From NCBI GenBank assembly GCA_973895155.1, contig OZ316896.1:21637150-21701149 (forward strand): a stretch of DNA of 64,000 nucleotides. The letters run 5' to 3'. The stretch's first letter is position 1. Each line of letters starts with the position of its first letter. A program made the position numbers and the translations under genes. This document shows, piece by piece, positions 4,319-34,987 of the stretch. The notes below the pieces were generated by a model. It was not told the DNA's origin. It searched no databases and saw only the letters and a program-made list of their open reading frames with translations. The DNA comes from Marsupella aquatica. Taxonomy: Eukaryota; Plantae; Marchantiophyta.

Positions 4319-4327
4319 GATATAAAG
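4319..4327 (+). promoter_or_regulatory. Candidate TATA box of the ANK-PGG gene
   Basis: gatataaa(g/c)tcgtc is conserved ~140-170 bp upstream of the ATG in all three paralogs (also ~45356 and ~51907). Confidence 0.45.
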
Positions 4328-4489
4328 TCGTCAGTGTGCTCATTGCCAGAACCAGTTCCTCTATCACCAGGTAAGCTTTTTACTCGATCTTACGAACAGA
4401 CTGTTGCTCCAGGGTGTGGAAGTGGGATCAGCAGAAGTCTGCATCGTTACTCTGGATCTGAGAGATCGCTTCGAGAGAGCTTTCTTCAC

Positions 4490-12400: not shown

Positions 12401-14607
12401 ATAGTGAGCTTGTATTGCAATACAGAACTTCTGAACAAGGGAAGAAACTTGACTCTTATGCTGAACACAATACACCCAGCGAAAGCGTGAGTAATCATCA
12501 GTGAGAAGCAGAAAAAAGCGTTGGTGATTGAGCCTGGGAGTGGAGATAGGACCAACAAGGTCAATGTGTATTTTCTGAAATGGAGCAGTCGCCCGAGTGT
12601 GTGATTCATGAGAGATAACACGAGAGGACTTGGCAAGGGCGCATGTTTCACACGGCGGTAGGACATTAGAGCCAGTGAGTGTAATGTTTGCTTGTTGGAC
12701 AACCTTCTTGACACCGTCAGAATGCAAATGTGCAAAACGACGATGAAGGAGAGGAAAACTAACACTCTGTGCAAAGAAGTGATTATCATCAGGAGTGGAC
12801 GAGGGTGGAACTTTGACGCAAAGAACCTTAAGGCCATCGAACTTCTTGACGCTAGCAAATTCTTGACCAGTTGCTTGGAAAACGAAACGAGACTCCCAGC
12901 CATGCCAATATACACCTTTCTGTTCTAAAAGATGCTCGGAGATAGTATTTAATGCACTACTCGGCATTTGGCGTACATTATGTAGTCGTATTGGTCGGTA
13001 AGATTTATCAGTGCATTGCACAGAAAGATCTAGATTACCGTGCCCTGGTGAAATGATTTGTCCTGCCCCAATATTGATGGACAGTGGATCAGATTGATAA
13101 TCCTGGAATAGACTCCGGTTGTTACAAAAATGATGATTCGCACCAGAGTCAGCAATCCAAGTACCGGTATCCGCAAATGGAGTCTCCTTAGAATGTATGT
13201 GATGTAAAGATTGCACAAAATTAAAAATATCAAGTGGAGGAGAATCAGGGCAGAGGACGGTTGGAAGAGTAGCCTGAACATTATTTGTCCACTTGAGGCG
13301 TTGTTGAATGCGTTGCATTGTAATTGTGTTGGGCTGCCATCCTGGTCGTCGAAGATGCTCGTACTTATAGTAACAGGTGTCCTCCTTGTGGCGAGGAAGT
13401 CGACAGTAAGGACAGAGTTCCTTAGGCAGCGTGGACGAAGTTGGACGTGAGGTGCTAGTATTGACGTTCAGCTGTAAAGCCGGCTGCAATGGTGCCTGAT
13501 CAGGATCATTATGATATTCATCCCGTGCTTCTTGAAGAAGAAGATCAAGGGAAGGAGAATCCTTCGGGTTGCGTCGGATGTGCTCACCTACATTGGTTGT
13601 CCAATGATTGAAATGCTTGTCCAGACTATGAAGAAACTGCATGGTTTGAACAGCAGTATCAATGACAATGCCTGCAGCCGCACATCGATCAAGAGCATCC
13701 CGGTATTGAGTAGTAAATGTTTCCATGTCCTCCCCCCGATACTGCAATTTGACGTTCAAGCAACCCACGTATTGTGCTTCTAGATAAGCCCCTGAGGCTT
13801 GTAGATCTTCTTCAATTTATCCCAACATTCTTTTGCTGTAGGCACCAACGCGAGGGTCGCCTGAATGTGTGTCTTGCAAGTAGAAAGGATGATCATCCGA
13901 GCGTGAGCGGCTTGAGCATTGTAAGTCTCAAGACGAGCCTGAAACTGATAGTTCTTTTCGTCAATCTCTTGAACAGGTGACACCGCTGTTCCATCAATGA
14001 ACTTCCAGCCGCCTGATGATGCCAGACTAGCTGAGACAAGTAGCTGCCACTGCTCGTAATTGGGACCGCCATCTAATTTTGGTAACAAGTGAGTGGAGTC
14101 ACAAAATGTCATGACTGTAATTGTGATAGAGCAAAACACGAAGTAGACAAAAGTGTGTGCGTTTGTTCACAGAAGACTATAACAGACTATCGATCGATCG
14201 ATTGATTTAATGTGGGCCCATAACCTGTGATCTGTAGCTTGGAGAGCAAAACATAAGACACTTTGACCCATTCATAAATCATACGCAGTATCTATGGAAG
14301 AGTGCAAACATTGCGCTCACATCCATTGATTGATTCATTGTAAAAGACTGAATGCTCTATCCAGAGTCAGTCGCGCATACTGCTTAAGTGCAGGCACTCC
14401 TGCCCTTCAAACGAGTTTGAAAAGAGCCAGGCGCGCCATAGGAAGCTCAAACACGTGTTGGGCAACAGACTGCCTTACACCCGCGCCACTTTACAGTAAG
14501 GAGTAAAGAGCTAAAAACAAGCCCTACGATAAGAACGGAAGTGAAAGTGGGAAGACGTCGAGACCAGAACACAGAAGGGAAACACTTCACAAGGGAAACA
14601 CTTCACA
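9479..14607 (-). mobile_element. Ty1/Copia LTR retrotransposon B, inserted in the 3' LTR of A
   Basis: 382-bp LTRs at 9479-9860 and 14226-14607 (2 differences seen). TSD ACATA (9474-9478 / 14608-14612). PBS GGTTATGGGCCCA at 14213-14225. PPT at 9861-9868. Confidence 0.96.
9883..14139 (-). pseudogene. Copia B gag-pol polyprotein, disrupted (gag, zinc knuckle, PR, GAG-pre-IN, IN, RT, RNase H)
   Basis: Motifs CPYCRLPRHKEDTC, WIADSGANHH, HIDLVG..TDDYSR..DNGTEF..QNGIAER, LWVDDII, YCDASFA..ADGLTK. Stop plus frameshift near 13780 and a frameshift near 10400. Confidence 0.92.
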
Positions 14608-14883
14608 ACATATAACATGAAGGAACAATCATCCGCGGGCGGCAGACAGGGGCTCAGCCCAAGTGGAATGGAGCGCGTCCAGGGAGCGGCCCTGCTGGCA
14701 ACCAAGTGGAACAGAAAGAGAGAAACAACGACAGCTAACTACGTGTTGCTGAAAACGATAGCTAACTACGTGTCGCTGAAAACTACAACTAATGCAAATG
14801 CTGACTAGTCTGTCTACGTATATCTATACGGTCATCAACAGGTCGATCGCTTCCAGTCGTATGTCAGAATTAAGGAAGACAAT

Positions 14884-16582
14884 TCAGATTGACACACCCC
14901 CCAGATTCTGAACATTCGAACTGGTAGGAAAGAGTTCCAGGCCAAGAAGATTCACGAAGTGTAGAAAGTTGCTTCCAGTGAGTGGCTTCGTCAGTCCATC
15001 TGCAGGCATGTCTTTCGTAGACAGATACTCAATGATAACAGAACCCTGCATCACTTGCTCTCGAACAAAATGATATGGTACGTCTATATGCTTTGTCCTG
15101 AAGTGGTGAGCTGGATTGATCGTGAGTGAGATTGCTGGTTTATTATCTCCATTGATCAATACCTTGTGAACATCTGGTGCATCATCCTGTAATTCCCTCA
15201 GCAGTCGTTTGAGCCACATCATGGCCTCTTTGGTGGCAAGAGAATAAGCTATCTATTCACTCTCAGTCGAGGAGGTTGCAGTCACAGGTTGCTTCCGATC
15301 CGAGATTTCCAAGACACCGGGCCATTTGTGAGTTTAAAAAGGTATCCACTAGTAGATTTGCAATCACTGATGTTATTAGCATAAGATGAGTCAGAGTAGC
15401 CAACGAATCCAAGCGAATGAACTTCAAGTCCTGTAACTGACGTTGGACGGAAACATATGCCCCCGCATATGCCAAGGTAGATCGTGCCACAAAGGTAACT
15501 GTAGACCCTCCGCAAGAAGCTCTCATGCTCTGGAGCTGGATTGTGGGCAAATTGGCCAAGTCGTGAACATCGTTCAGACAAATCAGGTCGTGTCCACACA
15601 GCAGCATACATTACTGACCCCAACATTGCTTGGTATAACTGTCGCTGATCAGCTATTGCAATAGCTGAGTATGGAACAAGTGAAGTGGTATCAATAGATG
15701 GCGACTGTGCTGGACGAGCATCTTCCATATGAAATCGACGAAGGATCTTCCGAATGTATGTATGTTGTGATAAGTAGAGAGTCTTTTCCACACGGTTCCG
15801 ACAGATAGAGATTCCAAGATAATCGGTTATCTCACCCAAGTCACCGTGTACTTGAAATTGTGCAGCCAAGAGAGCTTTGATGCATTGAATTCCGTGAAGA
15901 TTCTTAGAGATGATGACAATGTCGTCTACCCACAGGACCAACAGATCACCAAGATCATTGCGGAGTACACAAGGATCAGACTCCAATGGTAGAAACCCAT
16001 TCTGAATAAGATATTCAATAAGAGTTACGTACCACAATTTGTTTGACTGCTTGAGGCCATAAAGTGCACGGAGAAGAAGCCAAACAAGTAGAACACCATA
16101 GGCATCGTAGGTCTCATAGCCAGGTGGTGGACGAATGTAAATGGGATGATCCGATGCCATTAGGCTGTTGAGGAAAGCGGTGATAATATCAACACAATGT
16201 GCTTCAAGATCAGCAGATGCAACGTGAGCCATTACTGAATGAAAAGTCTCTGGGCGGACAACAGTGGCGAAAGTGTCCTCGTAGTCCATCCCGGGACGTT
16301 GCTTGTCCCCTCGGGCCACCAGGCAAGCTTTGTAAAGCCCATCCCGTTTCACATTGTATACCCACTTGGATGGGATCAACCGTGCTCCTGGTGGAAGCGT
16401 CAAAAGATTTGCCACTCGAAGCTTGTGTAGTTGTTGAAGTTCAAGAGCCTCCGCTTCCTTCCATTTGGCAGCATCAGGTCTGGTCATAGCTTCCTTGTGT
16501 GAACGAGGAAAGTCATCCAGAGTTTGTGGATAAAGAGCGGCAGCATAGCTATAAAGAAGAGTAGGCGGAAGTGCAGTAAGTA
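14884..16582 (-). pseudogene. Copia A reverse transcriptase / RNase H region
   Basis: SKWVY..ARGDKQRPG, ALYGLKQS, LWVDDIV, YSDSSYA, TKHIDVPYHFVRE, ADGLTKPL; frameshift near 15290. Confidence 0.9.
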
Positions 16583-17972
16583 AACACGATTTCGGACCGA
16601 CCGAGAAGTGTGTCGGAGTTCTCGTTTAGCCCGATCCCGTTTTTTTTCTAAGGCAATGCAATGACCGATAAAACTGGAAAAAACTCTCTGAAACGCCACT
16701 TTCCTCCATTGCATCGCCGCGGGAATGCAGGGAGCGATACGTGCATCGGGTTTTACATTCCGTCAGTGAAAAAGTCCGAACTGCGAGTAACTTGGTCCAA
16801 ACCGCGTAATCCAGGAACGACCACGCACTAACCCAGGTAAAGGGGAAACTTAACCATGGTTAAGGGGAAATTAACCATGGTTTAGAGCGTCTCCTATATA
16901 AAGAGGAGCGGGCTGCCCATAAAACGTTTGCTTTCGCCAGAGCAAATATCTCCTGACTGAGAGCGAATACCAAACTCCCATCAAGTCTTACAATCCTCCC
17001 AAGCGATTCGACTCTTTCTATCGAAAACCCGATAAATTTATCAGAACAGCCATTCCTGTTCAAGTTCTCCATGTAAGACTAACTAGTCATTTAGTGTAAA
17101 ATGTCCAGATCCGAGCGGACTGCGATAAATTTATCGCATTCTGCATTCCTCTGTTGCAATCATTTGATCCAGTGTTTAGAGAGGTGTTGCCTTCATTCCG
17201 ATAAATTTATCGGAGTCTTCATTCCTTTCATGGAAAGAGGAGTACTTGAGAATCCGATAAATTTATCGGAGTTGTCATTTTTATGAAAGATTGACTTCAG
17301 GGCTTAGGTGTCTGAGGAAGTCATATTTTCAATTCGAATGCGGAGTGCGATAAACTTATCGCATCCTCCTGTGAGAATCATTTTCCTTTGTTTTGTTTGG
17401 AGACTCATCTTCATCTCTGATGTCGCAATGTTGCCGGGTTTTGGAGGCACAATGGAAGGTTGATTGCACTCCGTGGACAACAGGTATTGTGACAAATGGC
17501 TGTCTTCCTTGAAAATCGTGTCAAACGTGCACGCCGGTTGTACAAGAGACTCGTGCGACTCAAAGTTCTCCCCATCGGTATAGGAGCATTGTGGATGGGT
17601 GGTACTGAATGATGCAGGAGTTCCAATTCGTTCGAGGTTGATGTTAACGGCGTGTTTACATTCTTTGGAGTTTTCTTGTAACTATTGTTGTCGTCATCTT
17701 GACAACAAGTACCACAAACAAGCTCACTTCTGTTGTAAGATTTGGAACGAAGACCCTTGGGTGAACCTTTCACGATGAGTGTTTCGACCTTTTCATTGAG
17801 GCGCGTCTTGGAAGGACATATTTAAATAAACAAGTCCTACCCTTGCGCAGCGAATATAATACGTCACGAGTCCTAATCATTAAACTGTCGTGCAGGGTTG
17901 GTACTGTGGATGTGTTCGGTTACACCTAGTGATTGAAGGTATTTTTATTGGTGGTTTTGGTAGCTCTACTTC

Positions 17973-18521
17973 ATGGCTGCATCGGAGAATCTAATTGTTG
18001 CAAAGATGGGATCCGTTTTAGCCCACGAGCGTAGGAAATATATTCGAGGAAAAGTGCCCGGTGTGGAATGCGGAAGTTTGTTGAATGGACTTCCCGATGA
18101 ACTCGTTGAATCTCACATTTGGCCCCTCCTAGCCTTGTCTTGCACACAAGATGAACACCTTGGCCTTGACCTAAAACTTCTATCAAAAGAACGACTGACT
18201 CGAATGAGAACAATCATTTGTCTTGGAGCCACCTCAAAGAAATGGAACCATCTTGTTGTTGGTACACGATTTTAGGCGCTATTGAAATATGCAGTCTGTG
18301 AGATCAATGACATAAACAAAATGCTCGCAAGCATTCCTAATGCCGACCTTCTCTCAAACATACATATTGCTAGGGTCTTCCGAGAGGAAACTCATTTCCT
18401 CCCTCCCATAGATATGCTTGGGTGCTTTTCGTATGAGCAGTTAGATCAGTTTTATAGAGTTTGGATAAATCTTGGAGAAAGCGGGAAGCGGACAATTCTT
18501 GCATGGCATGGACGAGTCTGA
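17973..18521 (+). pseudogene. F-box-like cargo gene with one in-frame TAG (18273-18275)
   Basis: LLNGLPDELVESHIWPLL...LGATSKKWNHLV resembles an F-box. ORFs 17973..18275 and 18282..18521 share a frame. TATA-like aatatataat at ~17853. Confidence 0.55.
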
Positions 18522-18789
18522 GTGGATGAGGCATTGCTGCGAACATCCGATAAATTTATCGCACTCCTCATTCCTCTAGTTGATTTTGGGTGCTCTAAGG
18601 TTTTCTGGAGAAGAGCTTGTAAAGAAACACTTTGAATGTAATTGACTCTGCCTCCCCTGACTTTGGGTTGTGTGGTCCAGAGTGTATTTGTTTGCCTCTT
18701 CGGACGATTAGCTGACAAGTGCATTGGCTTCACAGCCCATTATACAAGGTACTGTAAAGTTGGATGAAACTTGTAGAATTGTAATTAGT

Positions 18790-19547
18790 ATGTTCTCCAA
18801 AAATTATTCCTGATTTCTATTTGGTGATCAGGCCATGCTCGAGCGACGCATTTTTGTACCCTACCCGGATCCTCCAGAATGGGGGAATGGAGCCATGCTG
18901 GACCAGCTAAGGAGGCTGGATGAGTCACTAATTTTAAAGATATGCAGGCTGGTAGTAAAACCGTTTTACCATAACGCATTTCACTTCTACATAGATCAGG
19001 TAGGGGGAGAAATTTATATTCGGTGGGATAGATATGTTGGATTTTCTAGAAGAGTTATCCTACTTTTTCTGAAACCGGTGCAGTAAGACATTTTATACTC
19101 CACTGCTGTCATGTTGTGAAGGGCAATCCTGCTTATGAGCCAGAATTATATGCCGACAACAGACGTAGAGCATTCGATGAGATTCAGGATGTGATTGACG
19201 AGCTGGACAATCCTCTTGCCACCGAGTTTTTTATTGACACTGGTGGGAAACTATATTCATACAAGATTCGTCAACTCCCCCCCTAGCCGGTTTGTGCGCT
19301 CTTTAACTTGATCTATGTAAGTTGCCTATGGACGAACGTCCTTGCCAATGGTGAGATCTGTCCATGCTGCACAAATGCTTGTTGTGACATTCCGTCACGC
19401 CGGTATTCAGTAGCAGTAGTGAATCCTCAGACTGGTGAAGTTGATTTCCATTGGTTGTGGGCTTATGATCATCGCGTCACTCATATTCCCCAATGGCCCA
19501 AGAAGCGGATCGAACGCTTCGCTCTGGCGAGGTTCAACTATGATTAG
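18790..19547 (+). pseudogene. Decayed ~250-aa cargo gene of unknown function with a Cys cluster (CPCCTNACC)
   Basis: ORFs 18835..19086 and 19308..19547 can be joined through a bridging frame (AVRHFILHCCHVVKG..KIRQLPP*) with two stops and one frameshift. Confidence 0.45.
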
Positions 19548-21971
19548 GGTTTAGGTTTAGGGGTTAAGGTTTTGGATTTAGGGTTCCGTAGCTGATTCTT
19601 CGACCTGTACACTCGGCCGTCAATTTAAAGAAGGCTCACTTTTGCGATAATTTTATCGGTCTCTTTGTCCTTGTGTGATGAGATGTCGTGTCCACATGTG
19701 CTGTGAGATTGGTGCGATAATTTTATCGCTCTTTGCATTGGAATTTGTTTATTTGCAGACTTTGCCATGGCTGCTAGTGGAAAGAGTGGATCTGCTGAGG
19801 CAGAAAGTCTCATGACAAGCCTCACCAATGCAATTTGGACGAGTGAAGACATTTGTGAAGAGGTCAAGTGTATCAAGAAGTCATGGTACTTCCGTGACGC
19901 CAGATTACAGTCCACGGGTTTCGAAGATTGTGCTACCCCAATCCTTTGGGTCCAGTTGCAAAAATCGGCGAAGGTTAATGTTTCATATGGCCCTGTCATT
20001 GCTGTTGCCGTCGTCGAGTTCATGGTTGGCCACGGGGAGGGAAAAGTGTTGATAGAGGGCCTTAGTTTCTTGACAATGTGTGGGCGCAAGGGTTTCACAT
20101 CTCTCATTGTTACTCTCGATAACTTTGATGAGAAATCGATGGACAGTTATCCAGAAGATCCCCTTGTTGCCGAAGTTCGGGCAGCAAGAGAGATGAATGT
20201 TATGGGTTCGGCTTGGATCGGCCAGTATGTGCAAGATTGTGATGCCATCATGCTTCCAAGGGTGAACGCAGAGTACAAGAGACTTGTGGGTGAAGAGTTC
20301 AAACCTGTCCGCAAAATTGTTTTCAAGAAACCAGGTTCAAGTGGCAGCGGTGGTTCTAATGCCGATAAAATGTCGGGGCGGAAAGAACCATTGCAATCCT
20401 CTACACATATTGACGTGGACGAACCTACAACTTCTGGTCGGGTTCCGGGAAGTGGAAGAGGGAAAGGGAGAGGTAGCGGCAGGGAAGATGCCGCGGGAAC
20501 CTCTGACGGTGGGAAGAAGAGCCAAGAAACTGGCGGTAGTGGGAGAGGCCAGGGCAACCGTCGAGGACCATCCATTAAACCAAGCGAAAGTAAAGGATCC
20601 GAGGGATCCGGGCCATCTGGTTCTGGACTTAGCACAAAGAGGAAGAAGACTAGCTGGACTGAGACGGTGGCTGCAGAAGTAGATAGAGCTCCGTCAATTC
20701 CATCAGTTCCAGTCGCGGTTCCTGCGGCGCCATTGGTAAGTACTACGTCGTTGTACTGTTTAACAAATACGAAATCCGATAAAAATCTCGTTGTTTATTT
20801 CCTGAATTGCGGATTGTGGAGTTATGTTCAACAAATGCGAACTCCGATAAAAATCTCGCAGTTTCTTTCCTTAATTGAATTTGCAACGCTTTTGTAGGCT
20901 GATCAGGAGGAGGAGACGGCTCTTTCGATGTATGAGACGGATGCGATCAAGGCAGAGCTCAGTCTTCTGATGCAATGAAGGGTGCAAAGGACAACTGTGC
21001 TTCTGCATGTCGACAATCTCATATTTGATGAGGAGGGGGATTTGTCAACTTTGATTAGACCAGTGGATAGATTGCATGTGGAAAATATCAAGATACTTCT
21101 CATGAAAAACCCCACCAACTTCAGTGCCCCGTTCGTGCTGTGTGTGGATCCGAAGGATTGTCCCACAACTGCAGATTGGGACATCCTGAAGTCAAGGGTA
21201 TGGAAGTATAGAATTATTGGAGGGAATCATGGTGCTCGGGCAAAGTCCGAGTTGTTTAAAATGTACGGGAAGTAAATATATGGTGAGCTGGAAGCTTGGG
21301 TTTACGAGATCCGAGGTCCGAAAGTTAGGCTTCCAGCATAACTATGACCAGGAGTATCGAAAGAACATGACTAAAATTGACCAAGTTCGCGCTTGTCACA
21401 ATATTTTCCTTGAAATGGGTGTGGGCTCGACTAAAGATGTCCGCGAAGCATGTTGTCAAGAATGCATGATGGAGTACACGCCAGGAGTTCGTGACTCCAT
21501 GGCCAAACATGATCCGGCTTTCCAAATTGCTTTCCGAACAGGTGAAATTTGGGAACTTCAGGAGCAGATTTTCCAGATGTGGGAGAAAGGTATTAGGACA
21601 ACCCAAAAAAATTGTGGCAACGACGAACGCAAAGGGAAAGGTAAAACCTTTGACGGTAAGGGAGATTAAAATGAATAAACTTGCTGGTGACCTCAACTTA
21701 AATTCATTTCGAGGTCTCCAAGGACTGTCAAATAAGGAGCATGTCAAGCGTCTCTTGAACAGGGTTATCGGGAAGGTGATCACTTTGGATCAAATGCACA
21801 AGGAAGGTGAGAAGTTGAAAAAGCTTGCCAAGGTGAAGAAACTATTTTTGCAGATATCTGGTCAGCCAGATTGGGCAACATGCAGAGAAATGTTTCCCAA
21901 CAAAACAGATGTCTCGGTCCTTGGCATATGGGCGGAGAAATTGAGTGACGCGGTAAGCATTCCTCTCACAG

Positions 21972-22160
21972 CATGCTCTATCGCGAGATTTTTATCGGCT
22001 TTAGCATTCCTTTGTTGGTTTCTAAGCGATTGCATCTATCAGCTAGCGTGCTCCATCGCGAGATTTTTATCGGCTTTAGCATTTCTTTGTTGGTTTCTAA
22101 GCAATTCCATCTATTGGCTAGCGTGCTCCATCTCGAGATTTTTATCGGCTTTAGCATTCA
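21972..22160. repeat. 75-bp tandem repeat (~2.5-3 copies) in MTase intron 2, one palindrome variant per unit
   Basis: cgagatttttatcggctttagcatt at 21984, 22059 and 22134. Confidence 0.9.
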
Positions 22161-22203
22161 TCTCACGCTATTCTAACTGTAGATGTGTCTGACATTTTTA
22201 CAG

Positions 22204-23316
22204 CTGAAGATTAATTCAAAAAGAAAAAGCAAAGTGGTTCCGGCTGTCACTTATAATTCTGCGGGGGAGGTTATTGTTCCCTCAGCTGAAATCCCTTATG
22301 TGTTTAAGAATTTTGTGCTTGCTGCAATCGATAAGTACAATCGGCTGAGGTCCTTAGGCGAGGGCACAGCAGAAGCGTTTGAACAAACATGGAAAAATGC
22401 AGACGGGGATTCTTTTTCCTACTATCTCCATGTTGGTGATGTTCAAATTTTGGATTCTTTTGTTCAGCCAAGGGCTTACACCCTTGCGATTGCGGATATT
22501 CCGTATGGTTTTAATGCTCCTAGTTCGGAGTTTGATGAAGTGGCCTTCACAGAAAAGGACATTTTAGACATGTTGACAAGTTTCTCAAAGATGACGACCG
22601 CTAAGCAGTGGAGGTTTGTTGTGATCCATTCACTACAACAAACGCATATGGTGATGTCTGCACTAGAGAGTGTATGCAACTGTGGGATCGAGGCTGGAAT
22701 CTGGGAGAAGACTAATATTCATGAGCGTCCCGCTAGCGCTCGATTGGCGTGGGGTTTTGAGAACTGGTCGATAGGTTTCTATAGCGAGGAAGGCATTTGG
22801 AACATGAACATGTACAATTTCCAACCGGATGAGTCTCGCGTCAATATCATCAAGGTTCCATGTGTAACCAAGAAGTCCGTTGGTCCGTTGGGATTTATTG
22901 TGAACCCATATCAGAAGCCTGTTGGTTTGGGGGCTTGGTTTGTTTCCCATTTCTCTGAGAAAAAGGATTGGGTTATTGATCTTTGTTGTGGAACTGGATC
23001 AACATTAGCTGCTACGCTCCTCAATTCTCGCCAGGGTTGTGCTGTTGATAAGAGTTCTGCGCAGATTGATTTTGTAAAATCCCGGATCATGATTCTGGAG
23101 TCAAACTGGAATTTATATGAAGAATCCCAGATTGAAGGGCACGGCGTTGAAGGTTATGAGATTCAACCACCAATTGCAGGCCAATTGGGTGTTCTCAGGA
23201 CATCGACTTACATAGTTGAGGTCGTGAAGGAGACCGAAGAGGAACAAGAAGAAACTGAGGAAGAGCCTCCCAAAACACCAAATGAGGATGATCTCAATGA
23301 CATGTTATTAGATTAG
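22204..23316 (+). CDS. Intact exon encoding the amino-methyltransferase domain (N6_N4_Mtase-like, beta order)
   Basis: Catalytic DIPY precedes PxQKP and the SAM-binding DLCCGTGS, the motif order of beta-class DNA amino-MTases; acidic C-terminal tail. Confidence 0.85.
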   Translation: MKINSKRKSKVVPAVTYNSAGEVIVPSAEIPYVFKNFVLAAIDKYNRLRSLGEGTAEAFEQTWKNADGDSFSYYLHVGDVQILDSFVQPRAYTLAIADIPYGFNAPSSEFDEVAFTEKDILDMLTSFSKMTTAKQWRFVVIHSLQQTHMVMSALESVCNCGIEAGIWEKTNIHERPASARLAWGFENWSIGFYSEEGIWNMNMYNFQPDESRVNIIKVPCVTKKSVGPLGFIVNPYQKPVGLGAWFVSHFSEKKDWVIDLCCGTGSTLAATLLNSRQGCAVDKSSAQIDFVKSRIMILESNWNLYEESQIEGHGVEGYEIQPPIAGQLGVLRTSTYIVEVVKETEEEQEETEEEPPKTPNEDDLNDMLLD

Positions 23317-23647
23317 TTGCGTGTGCTCGTTAGGATAATGTCAATCACCAATGGAGTTGTCGATAAATTTATCGGATTCTGTATTCCATGAGGAAGAACC
23401 TTTGTCACATTTATTAATGCGATAAATTTATCGAACTTTGCATATATCGGACTGTCGCGGTGTTCTAGCTGGGGGAATGGAGTTGTCGATAATCTTATCG
23501 GACTTAGCATTTTATTCTCTAACTGGTTTGTCATTGCAATTATTTAAAAAAAAAAGATATCATTATAGCTGCCGAGTACATAGTCCCAGAACGATAACCA
23601 CTATACATATTCATGGGAACGATAACCATTATAACTTAAACCTGCAA

Positions 23648-26600
23648 CTAGCTTCGACTATCAACGACTACAATCTCCATTGCATTTTGAATGATTCGTC
23701 TTGTTTGTATAGGGAGAGTACTATTTGCCAATAACGCAAAGTTATACGCATAAACGATAGTTTCTGCTAGGGACAATTCATCCTCCAGTACTTTGCTAGA
23801 CGAAGCCTCTTTCTCTGGATAATATCTGCCTTCAATTGCAGACTCTTCCACCGAATCCATTGCATACCAAATGATTTTAATCCGCTCCGGGATGTCGTTA
23901 ATTCTTGTGAGAATCTTAGTCACTTTTGCCATCCAGAATGGTCTTCCCTTGGGATCCTGATGGGCTGCTACACATATCATTGCAAATTTAGTATTCACCT
24001 CTAGATCCTTGAAGTCTCCAATTTCCGTGACTTTTCTTCGACTTCCGGAATACATGACTGTCCTCACACCCACTACTTTATCAACCAAGCTAGGTTCCAT
24101 TGCTGCTTCCGTAGGATTACTCGGAAGTTCTCTCTGTACGTTTACCTTGGGCCAACTCCAATCAAAACTCCATTGTGCAGGTTTCAGGTGGTGTTGAATC
24201 ACTTCTTTTTGTTTGTCAAAAAAACGACCCCACCATAGACGATCTGCGTTGTCAAAGTAATTGAATCCATCTTCAATTGCTCTTCGATATTTTTGAAGAG
24301 TTGACAAATAACTTTGAGCCGCCCGCTCATCTTGTTTCTCAGCATCATTCTCTTGCTCTTCATTGTCTCCTGTCGCTCCCGTGGCCGACTTCAATGCCAT
24401 TTGTGGTGCGACCCACATTCCAGATGATGGAATGTACCGAACAAAATCCACTGTCTCCCCCCAATCAGTTGTCGTTGAAAGATGTTTGGCATGGAATACG
24501 GACCGAGCACTTCCATCTTCGAGTACTCTAGTAATCCAAAATTGTTTTTGAGCACTTATGCCGTGGAGAGTACGTAGAACCTGACCATCCATATCTTTGT
24601 CATTTGTTTGATCCTTGTCTGACACAAATTTCTTGAAATTGGCAACCTCGTCGACGAAAAATATCTTTGCCGTAGGATTGTAGGATTCCTCTATGATTTC
24701 TGAAAGAATGTTCAACCGGAAAGCTTTTCGCTTGTTCAATTTTGAAGAAAACTTGCTAAAAATTTGATCAATTTGATCATGGGTGTGCCCCACCAATAGA
24801 AACCAACCTTTATTTTCTGGAAAACACCTATCTCCACCAACATATTTAAATATGCCATAAGATATTTATTCTTGTTTTCCCGAGCTGTGTTATCAAGCTG
24901 GAGGTAAAGCACTGGAGGAAGCAGACCTTCCCAGGTATTCAGAATATGCTGGATAACGTGGATGGTCAGGTTGCTATCATTGTGAATATTTGGATAGTTC
25001 AAAAAAACATTTGAACTTAATTGTTTGTTGAAGATCAAACAACCCACTACGTGTACGGGGATGAAATACTTTTCATCCATATTCTTCGGACACCGAATGA
25101 AATGAGGTAACTCTGTCTTCTTTTGATCCATTCCATCAATACAGATGCCCAAATATTTCTCCGGACTCTTGTAACATTTGCTCCGGTGCTTTGCTAACTT
25201 CTTCCTCTCGACTGCTTGTGCCTTCCGATGCTCGTTTAGCAATGTTGAGAATTTTCCTACAATAATAAAAATGTTTAGGACAAAACATGATAACCGCAAT
25301 GTTGAACCCTGACAGCGATAAATTTATCAGGTTCAGTATTCAAACACGAGACCGTAATGATAAACCCTGACAACGATAAATTTATCGGGTTCAGTATTCA
25401 AACACAAGACCGTAATGAAATACTGTGACAACGATAAATTTATCAGGTTCAGTATTCAAACTGTTCAAACGATATATTCACTCACATGGCCAAAGAAGAA
25501 GCACATGAATACTCAACCCGATAAAATTATCGGGAGTAACACACAGGTTTAGAAACTTACTCTTTTCTACTTCGAGTGTTGCCTTGTCACGGAGTGCTTT
25601 GAATTCAGTACACAGGGCGCAGGTGGAGAAACGGCTCCTTTTAGGGATGCGCACGCGAGGAAACTTCTTGTTCCAAATGCGAAGAAACCACGAATATGTC
25701 ATGCCTTGTTCTTGGCGCATTAGAGTTTCGGACTGGAAGGCATCAAAAACTTCAGTTTTTGTCCAATTGTCAGGTAAATGAAAGATATCCTTGTTGGGGA
25801 GACTCTCGACATTTGTGGAAAAAAAATCATCCAGCCATTGGACGAGACCAAGATGTGCGGGTGATTTTTCTCGACAAACTGTACCGATCTGTATCCAAAA
25901 AAACATGTTCTGCGAGATTTTTTGGAGACGATTATTTCCTAGTGAAAATAATTTCTTAAAACCACTCCAACAAAAGGATCTACCGCTAATTGAGTAACCA
26001 CTTGCACCAGCATGCCCACCCTTCACACATCCTCTTAGAAGGACGTTCTTCTCTGGGTAGGATAGCCCATAGTAATAAGTGCGTTGTTTCGTCACGGCTA
26101 GCAGACCCAAATTCCTCAGACAGTAATTATCACAACACGAATACTTATGAATTTCTCTCATTTTGTTTCTATTCAATTTATCATTTATCACATTGTCTTT
26201 CCTAGTAATTCGGTCCCTATCTTTTTTACTAGGCTCATTTGACTTCTCTACAACCTGAAATCCGTTCATAATATTTTCGGGTCCTTCAGGTGCCTCGCGA
26301 ATAGATGCATCACTCTCTGCTGAGCTACCATCCTCTATAGATCTCCTTGACGCATTTAGAGGGGCACTGAATAGACAACTATAACTATTCTCTTCGATAG
26401 CTCCTTCTAAACATTCAGACACAACTTGTGCTATTATATCAGATTCTCTATCTCCTTCCTCATCTTCATCCTGCAATGCACTTGACTCATCTGAAAACAC
26501 AATTGGACTCCATGGCTCTCTATACATAACCCGAACGCCACTAAGACCTCTCCTCGATACTTGGAGCCTGGAACCAATGACAGTCCGCCCTTGAGAACTT

Positions 26601-27133
26601 GGAGATTCTGGATTCGCACGTGCAGTCCCAACGACTCCGCGAGCTGCTGGAAAAATGAGCACTTGTTCACCACGATTCCCACGGACCATTCGAGAAAGGG
26701 CCGAGTCTGGACTTTGCAGTCCGATTCCCTCGCTTGCTCGCACATCCAGTCCAGGCAATGCAAAGACCGATCGTCGTATCGGTCTTTGTATTTCTGTGTC
26801 CCGATCCTCACCCGGAGACTGAAAGATCCGTCGTTGAACTTGTGTTGAATGTGGCGACTTGAATGCTGACTGCGATACGCGTATCGGTCGCCGGATACCC
26901 TCTCCATAACCCGGGATGGATGGCTTGAAGTGACGTCTTGGACCTAAACCTGGGATTGAAAGTTTCTCATTTCTTGGCGATGGAACGCTCAAGAGACGAC
27001 GCTTCTCAGGTTTACTAGGCGACACATAGTAAGCACTGGGCTTAGGACCAGAACTTGCATCAAAATCTGAGTCAGAGATTTTGGGCACTATTTGCTGTGA
27101 GAGAGGTAGAGCTTTAAGTATGCGACTTGGCAA
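23648..27133 (-). pseudogene. Sola-like DDD transposase; exons ~27133-25561 and 25256-23648, one frameshift near 24797
   Basis: CCDNYCL and FSTCALC motifs. Catalytic-type motifs IDGMDQ, LYLQLDNTARENKN, (FL)LVGHTHDQIDQIFS. Phase-1 intron 25257-25560. The start codon is uncertain. Confidence 0.82.
25305..25461. repeat. 58-bp tandem repeat (~3 copies) in the transposase intron, one palindrome per unit
   Basis: gaca(g/a)cgataaatttatc(a/g)ggttcagtattcaaac at ~25311, 25369 and 25427. Confidence 0.9.
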
Positions 27134-27487
27134 ACAGCGAGCGACAAGATTAGGAGAGGATTCAACTGAACTGGAAGGTTAATCTGTGTCTGATTGAGAC
27201 ATGGCTATCCGAGACACTATGGGGCTTTGCATTCCTCCTGCAATCAGGGAAAACGAAAGGCTCAACGGATAGAATGTTGCTCCAAGAATACAACTCCCAA
27301 AACTCTACTCTCGATAATGACGCCAAAAACTTATCGGCGGTGGCCCTTTTATAGTGTCTGTTGAGGGGTTGGCCCACGTGTCCACTTTTGATTGGCTGTC
27401 ACCCTAAACGACAAAATAGCAGAAAAGGGTATATTTCTTGGATTTCTAATTTCATTCTCACACGTGCATCGTGGCAAAATTATATAG

Positions 27488-27692
27488 TTTTGAAATTGAA
27501 GCGATAAATTTATCTGATGTTGGTATTGCAAAAGTGGTTCCTTCATATGGAAGTTGCAATTTGAAATTGAAGCGATAAATTTATCTGATGTTGGTATTGC
27601 AAAAGTGGTTCCTTCATATGGAAGTTGCAATTTTGAAATTGAAGCGATAAATTTATCTGATGTTGGTATTGCGAAGAGTTTTCTTCATATGG
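27488..27692. repeat. ~71-bp tandem repeat (3 copies) upstream of the transposase, one palindrome per unit
   Basis: tttgaaattgaagcgataaatttatctgatgttggtattgc repeated three times. Confidence 0.9.
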
Positions 27693-28326
27693 ATAGGAAT
27701 TTTGAAATTTAACCGATGAACCGAAGGATCTTAGTATTGTCGACTAGTATTTTTGTCGCCCGTAGTTTTTGCGATAATTTTATCGGACTGCGCATTGCTG
27801 TTGAAAGAATGGCATGTTGACTATGGTCACTTGCGGAGGTAACTGGTCAATTGCGGACGTAACTGCAAGGTAAGTTTGATGAACCGTGCAGTAATTCTTA
27901 TCGACTGTGATGTAAAATATTTCTGGTAAATACCCAAAAACTGAGAAAACTGAGATTGGGTCGGAGCTTTCGTGGCTCAAATCCGGAGTCCAATACAGTT
28001 ATTGCACTTGGCTTGAAACGTGGATATGGATTTATAGATAAGACCTTTCATATATCTTCGGAGAGCGTGAATATGAGGTTGAGGAGAAAGTTTTTTGGAT
28101 CTAATTGTTCCTTGATAATATGAATGTTTGTTAGCATGAATTTCATTGGTTTTGATCATTATTAAATTTGCTGTTTCAATCCGAACTCTGATACGAATTA
28201 CATTATTTCCCCAAAAACGTGTTTTTGATGAAAAAAACTGCCGATTTCGCGAGATTCGGTGGAAAATGAAAATACACTTCTCGTTTAGAGGAAATAGTTC
28301 TTGTTCAGTCCAAAATTGTGTTAGTA

Positions 28327-28846
28327 GTTTGTGAACTGCCAGGTCAAGTCAAACGGGTGGAACACCTTTGTTGGTTCGAGCCGAACGGCGAGGTTGCTCA
28401 TGAGTTGCCCCTTCCAGCTCCACATATATTTCAGCATCAGAGAGATTCCCAAGAGGTGGTGAAATGACGGGTGTTGGTATGTCCACAGTAGCATGTGTTG
28501 ATGAAATGCTATCCATAGGAGCATGTTGTAAAGCCTGATTTGAGTTAGGATTCTGCAAATCAACCGGCTGCACTGGATCGGCATCTGATGTTCTAGGTAA
28601 TGCCAATGACGACGGGAGAAACAATTCAACACACTCATTGTTGGTAATCAAAGTAGTGTGAAGTGTATCAATGTAGTTGATAGGAGTTTGGCATGGAGAC
28701 TCATCAAATTGAACGTAAGTAGACCGTACAATCTCATTAGAAGAAGGAAACCACACACGGTAATTTAATCCATCGGCATATCCAACCAGATACCCTTTAC
28801 GAGCACGCGCAACAAATTTTTCCCCACGAGGACGTTTCTCAGGCGG
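28327..28846 (-). pseudogene. Copia A integrase C-terminal / linker fragment
   Basis: PPEKRPRGEKFVARARKGYLVGYADGLNYRVWFP..VQFDE..PRRSARTNKGVPP, homologous to the same region of Copia B. Confidence 0.88.
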
Positions 28847-29974
28847 TGTCTGGGGGGAAAATGTGGTTCTTGAGGAAGCACCGGGCCTATGGCTGCTAGT
28901 GTCAAGAGAGAACTTAAGTTAAGATCATGACTACTATTCTAGACTGGGTAGCAGACACCACAATAAATGGTTCCGTGGATGAAAGCACAACATCATAACC
29001 CCTTTCTCCATACCTACGGACTATTGCCTCCTTGGCGACTACCTTGGGTCGAGTTACAAAACGAATATCTCCCAACGAGAAAGAAACGGGAGGTTCATCG
29101 GAGGGAGGTTTGTTGAGATCCATCTCAATACAAGATAAAAATTGTGCAAGCCCAATCTTGTCCGTAAACTACATAAGGGTATACAATCGGCTCTATTGAA
29201 TTTAACACCGCAGTTGCAAATGCTTCTCCAAAGTGAAAAGTCATATGCTGACGCATGATCTCTTTTTGGAGTACATAAATTCTAATAAGGAAAGGATTGG
29301 GGAGAGGAAGAATAGGTACTGGTCTGGGCATTATTGTACTATCAAATATTCCATCCAACTAATATTCATTCTAATGACAAGATATAGAATCATTCAACGA
29401 AAAGATCATTCATTTCAAACGAATACTGTGCATTGAATTAACTCTAAGTATATACATACAGATGTTCATCTTAATAAGTTTATCTTCTTTTGAATAAAAA
29501 CACTATCTGAAGGTCCAACGCGCACAAATTACCATCGACTGAGCTAAGCTCCAAGCCAGCGTGCATGCGTAGGTCTACTTCATAAGGGTTTCATCCAAAA
29601 GGAGCATAGGATATTTGTTGAACACTTTGTATCTCTTTAGGACTTAATAACCATCTCCTATCAAATGATAACACTTGAAGGTCCAACTCATACAAAATAT
29701 CTCTGGCCAAGCCGAAGCTCTAAGCAAGCGTGTATGAGTGGGTCTACTTCATAAGGGTTATATTCATAGAGGAGGTCATCAAGTCCAATGGATTCTTAAG
29801 GCTTCACAACTTGGTTGATGAAAAATGGGGAGTGAGAGGAGAGAGCCCCTCTCCTCTTTATTTATAGTGCTCACACCTCAAGCACACGGATCAAGCATGG
29901 CACACGGATGGAAGCCATGTGTCACAAATCCAAGGCAAGTAAGTGTGCTAATACTGTAATTACGTGAGTGGAAC

Positions 29975-30350
29975 AACTGTAGATAGTACACTATAGCATG
30001 CACACTGTAGATCGTACATTGTAGCATGCATACTGTAGATCGTACACTGTAACATGCACACTGTAGACCGTACACTGTAGATCGTACACTATAGCATGCA
30101 CACTGTAGATCGTACACTGTAGCATGCATACTGTAGATCGTACACTGTAACATGCACACTGTAGACCGTACACTATAGCATGCACACTGTATATCGTACA
30201 CTGTATATCGTACACTGTAGCATGCACACTGTAGGTTTTGCACTGTAGCATGCACACTGTAGATCGAATCAATATAGCATGCATACTATAGACCGTGTAT
30301 AGCATGCACACTGTAGGTTGTGCACTGTAGCATGCACACTATAGACTGCA
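29975..30350. repeat. 14-bp-based tandem repeat inside the Gypsy LTR
   Basis: Alternating acactgtagatcgt / acactgtagcatgc units. Confidence 0.9.
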
Positions 30351-30503: not shown

Positions 30504-32337
30504 TTACTCAATGAATATTTCTTCCTCTTGCTTTTCAGGTTCTTCATCTTCTTCTTCTTCTTCTTCCTCTTCTTCCTCTTCTTCCTCTTCTCGGTCTGAA
30601 TCGATGGGATCTTCCTCTAAAAAACGTGTTCGCCTTTTGAATATTTTCACTCTTTTTCCTGCATAAGGCACACGATGAATTGCTCCATCCAATTCACGGA
30701 GAGTGTAAGTGGAATTTGGGTGAGTAGTAACTACTACAAATGGGCCCCTCCAACGTTGTGCAAATTTCTTGATCGAGGAGTGATCTTGTCCGAGACCGCC
30801 TTCAGACACTAAGACCCAATCCTCTTCTTGGATTGTCTTGGGTCTCAATCGATGGGTCTTGTCAAAGCGGAATTTGTTAGCCATTCTCTTTTGCTTCAAT
30901 TGTTTAATGGCGCCTTGGATCTTTGTAGGAGTGTGATCAAACTGCTCTATGCGACGAAGAATCAAATCCTCTTGAGATACACCATCCTCCCACTCTATTG
31001 CCCTCCAACTATTAATGTCTTCTTCTATTGGCATGAGTGGAAGTTGACCATTGATCAACTCTGAAGGTGCATATCCTGTTACCGATGTGCAAGTTGTTCT
31101 GTGTGCCATGAGTGCTAGGGGAAGGAAATTTGGCCAAAGTGAGATTCTTCCCTTGCATGCCTTAATCAAGGCATTCACTATTGGTTGGTGTCCCCTCTCA
31201 CTCTTGCCATTACCTTCAGGATTGTAAGCAGTTGTCAATTTGAGATTCACCCTAAACTTCCTGAAAAATGCAACTGCTTCCTCTGCATTGAGCTCCCCTC
31301 TGTCTGCCCTCATGCGATCAAAGCATCCATACCTTGCAATGATGTCCTCCAATACAAATCTACATATCGCCTTGGTCTTATTTGTTGTCAAGGCTCTACC
31401 TTCAATGTAAGAGGAGAGGTCCTCAATAGCCAAGACAAGGTACTTGGCTCCTCTTACTCCTCTCGGCATATGTACCACATCTACAGCCCATTGGTAGTGT
31501 AGGGAAAGAGGGTACGTGGGTTTTAGTCCATCTCTATGTTTCACCTTCGAGTAGAGTTGACACACTTTGCAAGTTTCCACATACTTGCTTACATCTACAT
31601 ACATTCCTTGCCACCAATATAGTCTTCGAATCCTTTCATAAATAGCTTCTCGCCCCTTATGTCCTGCCACGTCGGAATCATGTAAGTCATGTAAAATTTT
31701 GTGTTTCTCTTCATCTCTACCAATGACCCTTAGAAGTATGTGCCCCTTCTTCTTTGGATGCTTCCAAAGGGATCCACCTCTTACCATGAATTGGTAAGAC
31801 TTCTTCGGAATTTTGTTGAAGTCTTGCTTACTCCATGTTGAATCTTTTTGCAACGTGGCAAGGTAACGTCCTATCTGTAACAATTCCCCAGAATAAGCTT
31901 CCTCTTCAAACCTCAATTCCCCTTCATCTTCTCCATATGTACTATGAAGGCACATTCCTTGGTCCTCCTCGTCCCTATAGCGAGCTCGGGAAAGCATATC
32001 AGCTACTGGATTATCTCTCCCAGCAATGTGCTTTAACTCAGGATTAAATATTCTGATGAATGATCCATCAAAGCATTGCAATATCTGGAGTATCACAATT
32101 GGCTATCATTCCCAACAAGGGTAGGCAATCTGTCTCCAGTATTATATTTGCTCCTATCAAATAGTCTCTTTCTTGGCGAAGTGCTACCTTCGCACCCCAC
32201 AACTCTCGTTTTACTTGAGGATAATGCCTCTGTCTTTCTGTAAATATTTTTGCCCCAAACCGTGCGACAAACCTTTGTCCTTCCTCATCTTGCCCAACTG
32301 CCCATCCAGATGCATGAGGACTTGAGTCAATGGTCAC
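30504..32337 (-). pseudogene. Gypsy RNase H + integrase (frameshifted)
   Basis: HIAGRDNPVADMLSR, H-X6-H..CKVC, VDVVHMP, RADRGE, YNPEGNGKSERGH, RWRGPF. Confidence 0.9.
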
Positions 32338-32370
32338 AATTATTGGGTCAATACCATTGTACTTCAGAGG

Positions 32371-33843
32371 TCATAACACCGGTGAGCTAGTCAAAGCTTC
32401 TTTCAATTGTTGCATAGCCTTTGTATGGCCTGCACTCCATACAAACCTCACATTCTTCCTTAGAAGATCATAGAGAGGTTCTGCAATGTGAGCAAAATGT
32501 GGTATCCATATTCTGTAGAAGATGCAGGCCCCAAGAAATCTCCTTACCTCCGAGGTAGTTCTGCAGTTCTCCATATCCTTGATGGCATCCACTTTTGCTT
32601 CACATGGTCTTCTTCCATAAGGGCCACAAACTTGCCCTACAACCATGATCTCTTGTAACCCGAAAGCTGACTTCTCTCCAGATAGAGTTACTCCTACTTT
32701 CTTGAGTCTTTGTAGAATAGCTCCCACATCTTGTAAGTGCTCCCACACAAACTGTCTTAGCCCATCTCCTCTAAGTGTTTGATCCCTCTCCTTGTACAAA
32801 CACCCTTTTATGGGGATGTCATCAAGAAAAGGTCTAGTCTTCTCTGGAACAAACGGTTGCAAAATCCTATTCATGGCATTTTGCATATGGGCCACTGAGT
32901 TAGTTGCACCTTGAGGAAGGGTGCACATTCTTAACAACCCTAGTGGCGTTCTCATAGCAGTAATGTCTCTGCTATCTTGGGCAAGCTGAAACTGATCATA
33001 CCCTGAGTATAAGTCGCCAATGGAGTAGATTGCTCTCCCAGCAAACTCCTCAGCAAACTCATCCACCACAGGTCCTGTGCCCACATTCCTTATGGTGACC
33101 TTGTTTGGTGGCTGCATGTCTTGAATGAACCTTAGCTTCCCATTCTTCTTTCTCACCGTGAACCACCGATTTGAGTACGGAGCGTTTGATCTCTCAAGGA
33201 TTTTAGCATCTAACTTCTCCTTGAGTAACTCCACCAATTTAGGCATCAGTGCTCGTGGCACAGGAATTGGCTTAAGGTCCCAAGGAACATGTGGAACAGT
33301 GAAGATTACCATTGGTGTGATCTCCCTTGGATCAGCACATCCAATCTCTCCAATGGAAAAGGAAAAGGCCTTTTCATGTTTGATGATCATCTCCTTGAAG
33401 GCTCTTTTCTCTTCCTCTAGTAAACCCTTATCACCAATCTTTAATTTGAGCAACGTCTCCTCAGTGAATTTATGCCCAATCTTAGTACGATCTCTAAGAC
33501 TTGGCTCCTCCTTTGCTAGGAGCTTGTCCCAACAATCCTTTGCCGACGTAATGTCTGCAAGCGTTTGCTGAATGTGAGGTTTGCAAGTTGATAAGATAAT
33601 GTTGCGAGCCTGGGCAGCACGAGAGTGATAAAGTTCCAGGCGTTCAGCAAACTGGTAGTCCTTCTCAGCATCATCCTTGACTGGTTCGGTAGCAGTAGCA
33701 TCAATGAACTTCCACGCACCTGAAGCCTTGAGGGTTGACGTGCACAGAATTTTCCAGGTGGAGAAATTCTGGCTACCTTCAAGTTTTGGTATCAGGTGAC
33801 TATTGTAGCCAATGGAAGAACTACCCATCGAAGCATGAAACAA
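32371..33843 (-). CDS. Chimeric ORF: Copia A gag N-terminus fused in frame to Gypsy reverse transcriptase
   Basis: The first ~109 aa (IPKLEGSQNFSTWK..AKDCWDKL) match Copia B gag. The remainder (RDRTKIGHKFTEETL..PQGATNS..FLDD) is Gypsy RT. Junction ~33516-33520. Confidence 0.85.
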   Translation of the reverse strand: MFHASMGSSSIGYNSHLIPKLEGSQNFSTWKILCTSTLKASGAWKFIDATATEPVKDDAEKDYQFAERLELYHSRAAQARNIILSTCKPHIQQTLADITSAKDCWDKLLAKEEPSLRDRTKIGHKFTEETLLKLKIGDKGLLEEEKRAFKEMIIKHEKAFSFSIGEIGCADPREITPMVIFTVPHVPWDLKPIPVPRALMPKLVELLKEKLDAKILERSNAPYSNRWFTVRKKNGKLRFIQDMQPPNKVTIRNVGTGPVVDEFAEEFAGRAIYSIGDLYSGYDQFQLAQDSRDITAMRTPLGLLRMCTLPQGATNSVAHMQNAMNRILQPFVPEKTRPFLDDIPIKGCLYKERDQTLRGDGLRQFVWEHLQDVGAILQRLKKVGVTLSGEKSAFGLQEIMVVGQVCGPYGRRPCEAKVDAIKDMENCRTTSEVRRFLGACIFYRIWIPHFAHIAEPLYDLLRKNVRFVWSAGHTKAMQQLKEALTSSPVL

Positions 33844-34987
33844 AGGAGATGTTGGACTTGGAGATAGTAAAGAATTAGAGGTAGTACAATGAGAGCTAGG
33901 GAGCGAATGAACTATCGAAGTACTAGAACAAAGTGTAATGTAGTTAGATTTGAAAAATTAAAAATGGCCCATAACCTGTGAATCTAAAACACATAACGAC
34001 TTGTAGATGCACGTACACGAGAGAATATACAAGAGATGGAATATATGAACGCAGTGCTCAGATCTGCTTCGGATCTGCTTCTCACGGAATGTCTGATAAT
34101 AATCCAATCACTGCAAGGGCAGGGACATATAACATGAAGGAACAATCATCCGCGGGCCGCAGACAGGGGCGCAGCCCAAGTGGAATGGAGCGCGTCCAGG
34201 GAGCGGCCCTGCTGGCAACCAAGTGGAACAGAAAGAGAGAAACAACGACAGCTAACTACGTGTCGCTGAAAACGATAGCTAACTACGTGTCGCTGAAAAC
34301 TACAACTAATGCAAATGCTGACTAGTCTGTCTACGTATATCTATACGGTCATCAACAGGTCGATCGCTTCCAGTCGTATGTCAGAATTAAGGAAGACAAT
34401 TCAGATTGACAAATTGTTCCTCTTTCCGTAAGTGCATATCACGGCAATTAATGTCTCTTCGCATGTTTTCAAGAATGGACTGCCAAATTCGTGAATGGGG
34501 GAAGAAGCTTGGCCTACTTGCTCGAAGCTGTCTTTCGTCCTGGCTACGAAATGACTGTAATACATCTTGAAAAGGAAAAGGGGTTTAGAGAGTTAGCCAT
34601 TTGTTAAATTATTTATTTGGATTTGAATGTATTGAACTTGAGGAAGGTCATAGACCCACTTGGTAGAAACAAATTAACCATGACAATGGTGACATCGAGA
34701 AAGCATTTATGGAACTAAGCCATGTCCAGCTCAGGAAGAATACAACCAACTTTGGAGAAGGGATTCGGTGAAATTTTGGAAGAAACCTTGGCCAACTCAT
34801 GTACTCAGAAATAAGTAGTCTGGTCTACTTCTTCCATAGATTATACGGAATACAAGAGCAACATCTCTATGGCAAACAACTCCACAGATACAGCACAAAC
34901 AAAATTTCCTTTCTGGCCGGTCTTATATTCTGTACTTCTAATGTTGGAAATGAACCACACTCGAACGAAGATGGATACAGCCACAAA

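Follow-up and report, generated by a model that had tools for sequence, protein, structure and literature searches.

A Sola1-like transposon of a land plant carrying a ParB-methyltransferase gene and a repeated bipartite palindromic site

The element and its genes

We analysed a 64-kb stretch of contig OZ316896.1 of Marsupella aquatica (the window; positions count from its first base), in which a first-pass annotation had outlined a DNA transposon carrying a gene that joins a ParB-like module to a DNA amino-methyltransferase (ParB-MTase). The locus holds a bounded, multi-copy element with a spliced gene for a ParB-fold/methyltransferase protein and a repeated non-coding site. The transposon spans positions 16583-28322 (11.7 kb) and is exactly bounded: its termini read AACAC...GTGTT, its terminal inverted repeats (TIRs) are imperfect, with 19 of the 24 outermost bases agreeing between the two ends, and the 4-bp target-site duplication (TSD) AGTA stands on both sides. 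In-silico excision yields a single open Copia frame of 440 aa that runs into the reverse transcriptase. The ends, the AGTA pair and this frame bear out the precise bounds and the empty site given in the annotation. Coding DNA makes up 65% of the element, the features of which are as follows (strand in brackets where one applies).

16579..16582: left TSD, AGTA
16583..16606 (+): left imperfect TIR (AACAC...), 19/24 bases agreeing with the right end
16723..17361: left site cluster, with a variant core at 16735 and cores at 17030, 17123, 17199, 17255 and 17348
17973..18521 (+): cargo gene 1, ~180 aa; premature stop at 18273, a point of difference from the siblings
18548..18561: palindrome between the cargo genes
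18835..19547 (+): cargo gene 2, ~235 aa, Cys/His-rich; frameshift after 19071, stop at 19284
19645..19728: two palindromes (19645, 19715) just upstream of the ParB-MTase start
19767..20735 (+): ParB-MTase exon 1; conserved N-terminal domain of ~190 aa and low-complexity linker
20736..20897 (+): intron 1, with two variant palindromes (20777, 20845)
20898..21952 (+): ParB-MTase exon 2; predicted ParB/Srx-type fold and predicted ParB-like helical DNA-binding region; interrupted here by two stops and two small deletions
21953..22203 (+): intron 2, with a 75-bp tandem repeat holding three variant palindromes
22204..23316 (+): ParB-MTase exon 3; predicted beta-class amino-methyltransferase with DIPY (22495-22506), NPYQKP and DLCCGTG; reading frame open here
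23361..23500: three palindromes between the convergent genes
23648..25256 (-): transposase exon 2, DDE core (DGMDQ, QLDN, GHTHD); frameshift near 24798
25257..25560 (-): transposase intron, with a 58-bp tandem repeat and four palindromes
25561..27202 (-): transposase exon 1, with an early stop here and a low-complexity 5' part that holds variant sites at 26768 and 26873
27323..27785: right cluster of five palindromes, three of them within a 71-bp tandem repeat
28299..28322 (-): right imperfect TIR (...GTGTT)
28323..28326: right TSD, AGTA

The ParB-MTase gene (19767-23316, plus strand) has three exons (19767-20735, 20898-21952 and 22204-23316) separated by GT-AG introns, all in phase 0, and its product comes to ~1,050 aa after counting 16 bases that are present in sibling copies. 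All the features noted in the first pass, namely three exons, convergent orientation and the motifs IGGNH (encoded at 21216-21230 in exon 2), DIPY, NPYQKP and DLCCGTGS, are present, and the length of ~1,040 aa estimated there is close to ours. Four metagenome loci (L001-L004) were recovered as relatives. L001-L003 hold the ParB-MTase gene, with the exon-2 donor and exon-3 acceptor at equivalent positions and exon 3 54-56% identical; L001 and L003 are sister sequences in the methyltransferase tree (98/92). The N-terminal domain of ~190 aa (19767-20342) is 31-32% identical to L001/L002, and exon 1 gave no Pfam or Atlas match.

The model of exon 3 (the METHYLTRANSFERASE module) reached a predicted local distance difference test score (pLDDT) of 81, and its fold matches were headed by CcrM (E 1.3e-14), followed by BceJIV, bdelloid N4CMT, PvuII and RsrI. 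The catalytic motif IV (DIPY) precedes the S-adenosylmethionine (SAM)-binding motif I (DLCCGTG), which is the beta-class order. By model and motif order, exon 3 is thus predicted to be a beta-class amino-methyltransferase, in support of the earlier call. The Pfam cut-off for PF01555 was passed by 16 of 25 relatives scanned. Among the 150 matches listed, motif IV started with D in 95 of 101 aligned segments and read SPPY in one; judged from this motif, the D type favours N6-methyladenine (6mA) as the product. In all six pairs among the window element and L001-L003, the proportion of synonymous differences was 0.80-0.86 (saturated) vs 0.15-0.30 for nonsynonymous differences, a pattern by which the methyltransferase exon is under purifying selection.

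Nine single-chain proteins in the databases, including ones from Chara, Ginkgo and Adiantum, align over both the ParB and the MTase modules. The organisms named in the protein records of 20 relatives looked up were Chara braunii (6), Riccia sorocarpa (2), Adiantum nelumboides (2) and Ginkgo (1). The gene model P0029 (Chara braunii GBG86584.1) comprises two tandem ParB-MTase units. Related proteins may also be described by Iyer et al. (2011), to whom green-algal relatives are attributed. With exon 3 as the query, no full-length relative (661-2,000 aa) was found among 3,193 candidates.

The fold of exon 2 was judged from a model of an intact relative, P0001 (17-row alignment, mean pLDDT 58). In Foldseek, ParB, Noc and PadC filled the top ten rows (best 6sdk, E 4.8e-5), KorB and sulfiredoxin ranked lower, and VIA-align placed PadC first (Z 8.2, root-mean-square deviation 3.2, 99 residues). 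On this model, exon 2 has the ParB/Srx nucleotide-binding fold of ParB, Noc and KorB, as proposed in the first pass. Residues 262-302 of P0001 weakly matched the end of the Spo0J DNA-binding domain (E 0.097). For exon 2, there are seven intact relatives, 63-87% identical over a 98-aa query piece, and five of them stop at or just beyond the same intron position. An Atlas feature search with P0001 ranked fungal DUF3723 clusters at the top (0.94-0.95, 160-168 shared features); in a literature listing DUF3723 occurs mainly in Starship papers, and it may be a ParB-like module of mobile elements.

Prokaryote genomes yielded no relative of the ParB module or of the transposase, the searches of prokaryotes and viruses found nothing close to the ParB module, and in PHROGs only the MTase half was matched. 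In viral contigs, neither exon 3, P0070, P0126 nor the transposase had a relative; the MTase alignment as query brought up 61 loci there, most of them short matches around the SAM-binding motif (E 1e-7 to 1e-3). These null results left the analysis without a donor and without a transposase-only element as a control.

The transposase gene (27202-23648, minus strand, one intron) matches DUF7869 (E 1.8e-28), and its DDE core lies on the strand opposite to the ParB-MTase gene, in agreement with the Sola-like transposase proposed before. From the DDE core motifs, TIRs, termini and 4-bp TSD, the element is probably a Sola1-like DNA transposon. The nearest named ones among 109 transposase relatives come from Adiantum, Ceratopteris and Riccia. 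The two further cargo genes of the annotation stand as frames 17973-18521 and 18835-19547; neither matched a Pfam family at significance, and in cargo gene 1 an F-box-like stretch was recognized by eye only. A short telomere-like run (TTAGGG/TTTAGGG variants) lies at 19544-19583, at the end of cargo gene 2.

A bipartite palindromic site

At up to two mismatches, the palindrome CGATAAATTTATCG has 19 matches in the window, all within the element, against a chance mean of 0.15 in shuffled sequence; none of 100 shuffles reached 19. At up to three mismatches we counted 25 cores within the element and one outside, in good agreement with the ~24 copies reported earlier, and none of the 25 lies in coding DNA. 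A looser two-part filter found 22 sites inside the element and none outside (shuffle mean 0.35), adding the variant cores at 16735 and 17773, two within the 5' frame of the transposase (26768 and 26873) and a weak one in cargo gene 1. A scan of the repeats against Rfam returned no matches, leaving an RNA reading of them without support. Near the left end of the element (16829-16882), a 22-bp tandem repeat carries another small palindrome, AACCATGGTT.

The repeat unit exceeds the 14-mer, as a second, outer motif, overlooked in the first-pass annotation, stands at a constant distance from the core. The full site in four elements (the window element and L001-L003) reads GAATRY-N6-CGA-N8-TCG-N6-RYATTC, often with a single outer arm only. 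ATT[CGT] occurs exactly at +9 after the core in 82 of 142 half-flanks (21/50, 30/36, 17/40 and 14/16 per element), any other offset occurs at most 9 times, and the spacer is variable. All core versions share CGA-N8-TCG, and the inner cores are family-specific: CGATAAATTTATCG in the window element, CGATCCAAACATCG in L002 and CGAGAC-nn-GTCTCG in L001 and L003, with no cross-occurrence apart from the core that the latter two share. L001, L002 and L003 have 18, 20 and 8 cores, of which 1, 0 and 0 lie in coding DNA, and the repeats occupy introns and flanks. Upstream of the exon-2 homologue of L004, a lone, different 19-bp palindrome (L004:98-116) is possibly a fourth core type.

Sibling copies, relatives and surroundings

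Sibling copies were compared by placing contigs of four public runs on the locus; one of these runs, X1, may be the source sample. In X1, the contig of the unique flank had a depth of 36 vs 510-664 for the element contigs, which points to roughly 15 sibling copies, ~1-2% apart, contig depth being only a rough guide. All 30 bins of the element, including both cargo genes and the ParB-MTase gene, were covered in X1-X3. Thus, as far as contigs tell, the siblings are near-identical, cover the whole cassette and keep the MTase gene. This copy is partly decayed, as had been described, with stops at 20976, 21273, 18273, 19284 and 27179-27181 and frameshifts after 21301, 21592, 24798 and 19071 affecting ParB-MTase exon 2, the cargo genes and the transposase. 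High-depth contigs carry extra bases at the four frameshifts, indicating that those breaks are private to this copy. Two contig joints were seen: one at 25573-26805, in three runs, removes part of the transposase, and another, from 17375 to 27325 (a single run, with 30 letters on the short side), keeps only the end segments. These joints suggest internally deleted derivatives.

Among the metagenome relatives, the ParB-MTase gene and palindromes co-occur in all three loci spanning exons 2-3, and two of these, L002 and L003, also reach the convergent transposase end; L001 ends earlier. The ParB/Srx fold in the model, the retention of the MTase and this co-occurrence were the testable points on which the first-pass annotation had made its proposal depend, and all three were found.

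The host is a land plant also by the genes of the window, which include a polyphenol oxidase with DWL and KFDV domains (an open frame at 60965-62677, 570 aa, with a hydrophobic stretch at the N-terminus) and three paralogous ankyrin-PGG genes (4259-7435, 45358-48260 and 52062-54883). Nested long terminal repeat retrotransposons occupy 9883-16625, 28349-28918 and 30504-33957; they comprise two Copia copies, the second of which is split by the ParB-MTase transposon, and one Gypsy-type element. A 14-bp tandem array of ~26 copies lies at 29976-30345.

A possible self-marking system and its alternatives

On our best reading, the element was recently amplified in a land plant and would be a VANC-like, family-specific self-marking system. 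We give an even chance to the proposal that the ParB-MTase binds the palindromes of its own family and methylates DNA there, probably at adenine, keeping the family active against host silencing. In this scheme, the ParB module would dimerize to read the inner 14-16 bp of the site, and the constant GAAT/ATTC, about one helical turn from the core, would be a second contact and possibly the methylated target. The fused enzyme would then methylate nearby DNA, probably at adenine, and either the mark or the bound protein would counter host silencing by 5-methylcytosine (5mC), by analogy with VANC, which does so for VANDAL. With the Box II arginine missing, we favour local binding at the many dispersed sites over sliding driven by cytidine triphosphate (CTP), which such a number of sites would also make unnecessary. 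A wider form of the proposal, in which streptophyte Sola1 transposons would run a phage-type self-marking code, with ParB reading the core, 6mA placed at GAAT/ATTC and an escape from 5mC silencing, is a possibility that we hold tentatively, leaning against it.

Box II is also the reason why the parS-style loading and spreading suggested in the first pass is doubtful. The arginine of the GxxR motif is required for nucleoside triphosphate binding in ParB-fold proteins (10.1101/2025.10.10.680097). Here, Box II reads GGNHGARA and lacks this arginine, with the register aligned by eye, and in none of the GG-x-H variants tallied does an arginine directly follow the histidine. Pfam-family scans of the frames of the element found no ParA family. 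Membership of a canonical ParABS system is ruled out because the Box II arginine and ParA are missing.

The altered Box II weighs against the proposed self-marking, and several other observations do so as well. HTH_ParB gave a sub-threshold match in only three of eight proteins (E 0.05-0.09), and residues 196-267 of P0001, the expected recognition-helix region, have a pLDDT below 50 and are unreliable in the model. Exon 3 of this copy scores 23.9 bits for PF01555, under the Pfam cut-off of 26.7; the N4-methylcytosine (4mC) enzymes PvuII and bdelloid N4CMT score nearly equal to CcrM in the fold search, so that the fold does not discriminate 6mA from 4mC. As for the site, the comparison rests on four elements only, many copies are local tandem duplicates and hence not independent, the outer pattern was picked after inspection of the data, and L004 (1,086 bp, mostly exon) has no site of the bipartite type. 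Instead of the ParB-MTase, the transposase or a cargo protein may be the binder. Finally, the substitution comparison with siblings covered 40 of 1,232 rows, 35 of them in the element, with the exon-2 stops not among them. In 25 of these 35 differences, this copy has T/A and the siblings C/G, and 11 of the 25 are in CG context vs a background of 18%. Such CG-biased decay fits host 5mC acting on this copy, and any protection would therefore be incomplete.

This decay is also an argument for the somewhat unlikely alternative that the ParB-MTase binds and marks the palindromes for self-regulation (repression or timing of the transposase or its own promoter, or folding during excision), as KorB, CcrM and Dam do in bacteria, and not for anti-silencing: the copy went unshielded from 5mC, both promoters have sites next to them (19645, 19715; 27323-27772), and KorB and Noc are among the fold matches of exon 2. 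However, 12 of the 25 cores are remote from promoters, being placed in introns or where the convergent genes face each other with their 3' ends, and this is the layout of VANC anti-silencing targets. Another binder of the palindromes, either the transposase or one of the two cargo proteins, with the ParB-MTase acting elsewhere, is an alternative that we consider unlikely. Clusters of five cores stand near each end, one of the contig joints (17375 to 27325, one run) keeps just these two end segments, TTCTCG words in the terminal 50 bp look like a half-site, and the contigs of the relatives end before the region of the cargo genes, all of which would suit such a binder. On the other hand, both ParB-MTase introns carry sites in the window element, L001, L002 and L003 (partially in intron 1 of L003), and a dyad of 14-16 bp is the usual target of the ParB family. 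Moreover, ParB genes are paired with inverted repeats in elements with unrelated transposases (Plavaka, described below).

Several sites are located in tandem arrays of 58, 71 and 75 bp, as would be expected if the repeats were neutral products of tandem duplication and the ParB-MTase gene a passenger. We regard this as very unlikely, since the spacing stays fixed, and the spacer variable, in families with saturated synonymous sites, dyad symmetry is retained while the cores diverge, and the MTase appears to be under purifying selection. The self-marking proposal, to which we return, also has precedents among known systems.

The closest is Sola1-1_Ec32 of the brown alga Ectocarpus, which carries a 1,104-aa ParB-like/N4-N6 methyltransferase opposite to the transposase, for which self-binding and self-marking were proposed; its termini are AACCG, its 4-bp TSD is biased to end in A and its best match is Sola1-1_PPa (PMC12477816). 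Both are large Sola-type elements with termini starting in AAC (AACCG there, AACAC here) and a 4-bp TSD ending in A (AGTA here), and both have a ParB and amino-MTase fusion of similar length on the strand opposite to the transposase (here in the window element, L002 and L003). In contrast to the algal element (21.5 kb, 282-bp TIR), ours resides in a land plant and has 11.7 kb and a TIR of ~24 bp. The likeness is one of described features, and the main text on the algal element does not mention palindromes. PMC7466625 does not mention Sola. In Plavaka (EnSpm) elements of Bostrychia, the ParB-like PAG3 adjoins inverted-repeat arrays, its proposed target, and a separate gene encodes an MTase-SET protein (bioRxiv 10.1101/2025.02.11.637652). 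Our case resembles PAG2 and PAG3 in that transposon accessory genes encode a ParB-like domain and a PF01555 MTase and that inverted-repeat arrays are present, but there ParB is fused to a 2-oxoglutarate oxygenase and the MTase to SET in two genes, the repeats lie beside PAG3 and not element-wide, and the transposase belongs to another superfamily. These two precedents rule out a categorically new system: the fusion and the self-marking idea had been published for Sola1-1_Ec32, and ParB with inverted repeats for Plavaka.

VANC21 and VANC6 of Arabidopsis VANDAL (Mutator-like) act on motifs amplified in introns, intergenic and terminal DNA, with loss of 5mC (PMC5735166). As a model of how our element may work, they share short, family-specific motifs that lie in non-coding parts, are tandem-amplified and co-evolve with a protein of the element. 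The VANC motifs, however, are 8-9-bp words and their effect is a loss of 5mC, whereas our element pairs a bipartite dyad with a protein that has its own methyltransferase. With the bacterial ParB-parS, Noc-NBS and KorB-OB systems and with phage ParB-MTase fusions (10.1101/2025.10.10.680097, PMC4738411), the element shares the ParB-CTPase fold, dyads of 14-16 bp, the fusion to an N6/N4-MTase and perhaps a helical DNA-binding region; it differs from them in the replaced Box II arginine, in that no ParA was found and in its spliced eukaryotic gene. MpDN4MT1 of Marchantia and bdelloid N4CMT are likewise eukaryotic beta-class amino-MTases of the PF01555 type (10.1101/2021.02.12.428880, PMC8885841), but they are host genes with SPPY, indicative of 4mC, and are stand-alone or chromodomain-fused, whereas ours has D-x-P-Y, is fused to ParB and is transposon-borne. 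Due to these differences in motif (DIPY here) and architecture, membership of the DN4MT1/N4CMT group is ruled out. According to Iyer et al. (PMC4738411), adenine MTases linked to ParB occur in chlorophytes and chytrids, and land plants have few N6A-MTases.

The literature searched, with subscription journals and Repbase reports outside its scope, held no description of a ParB-MTase transposon from a land plant or of the bipartite palindromic site. The element adds the land-plant setting, with protein relatives in Chara, Riccia, Adiantum and Ginkgo, a defined site with natural specificity variants, and a young sibling family. The 2025 proposals of transposon ParB-methyltransferases as self-marking accessories, as far as the available texts go, came without a target sequence or a test. 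The exact site in three versions, together with young near-identical siblings, makes binding, specificity swaps and 6mA/4mC calls directly testable. If the mark exists, plant transposons would have a second way, beyond VANC, of countering silencing, and land plants, for which few N6A-MTases have been counted (PMC4738411), would have a defined source of amino-methylation. Should the self-marking code hold, land plants would have their first sequence-specific, transposon-written adenine mark, made by a natural programmable methylase the specificity of which shifts with the 8-bp core.

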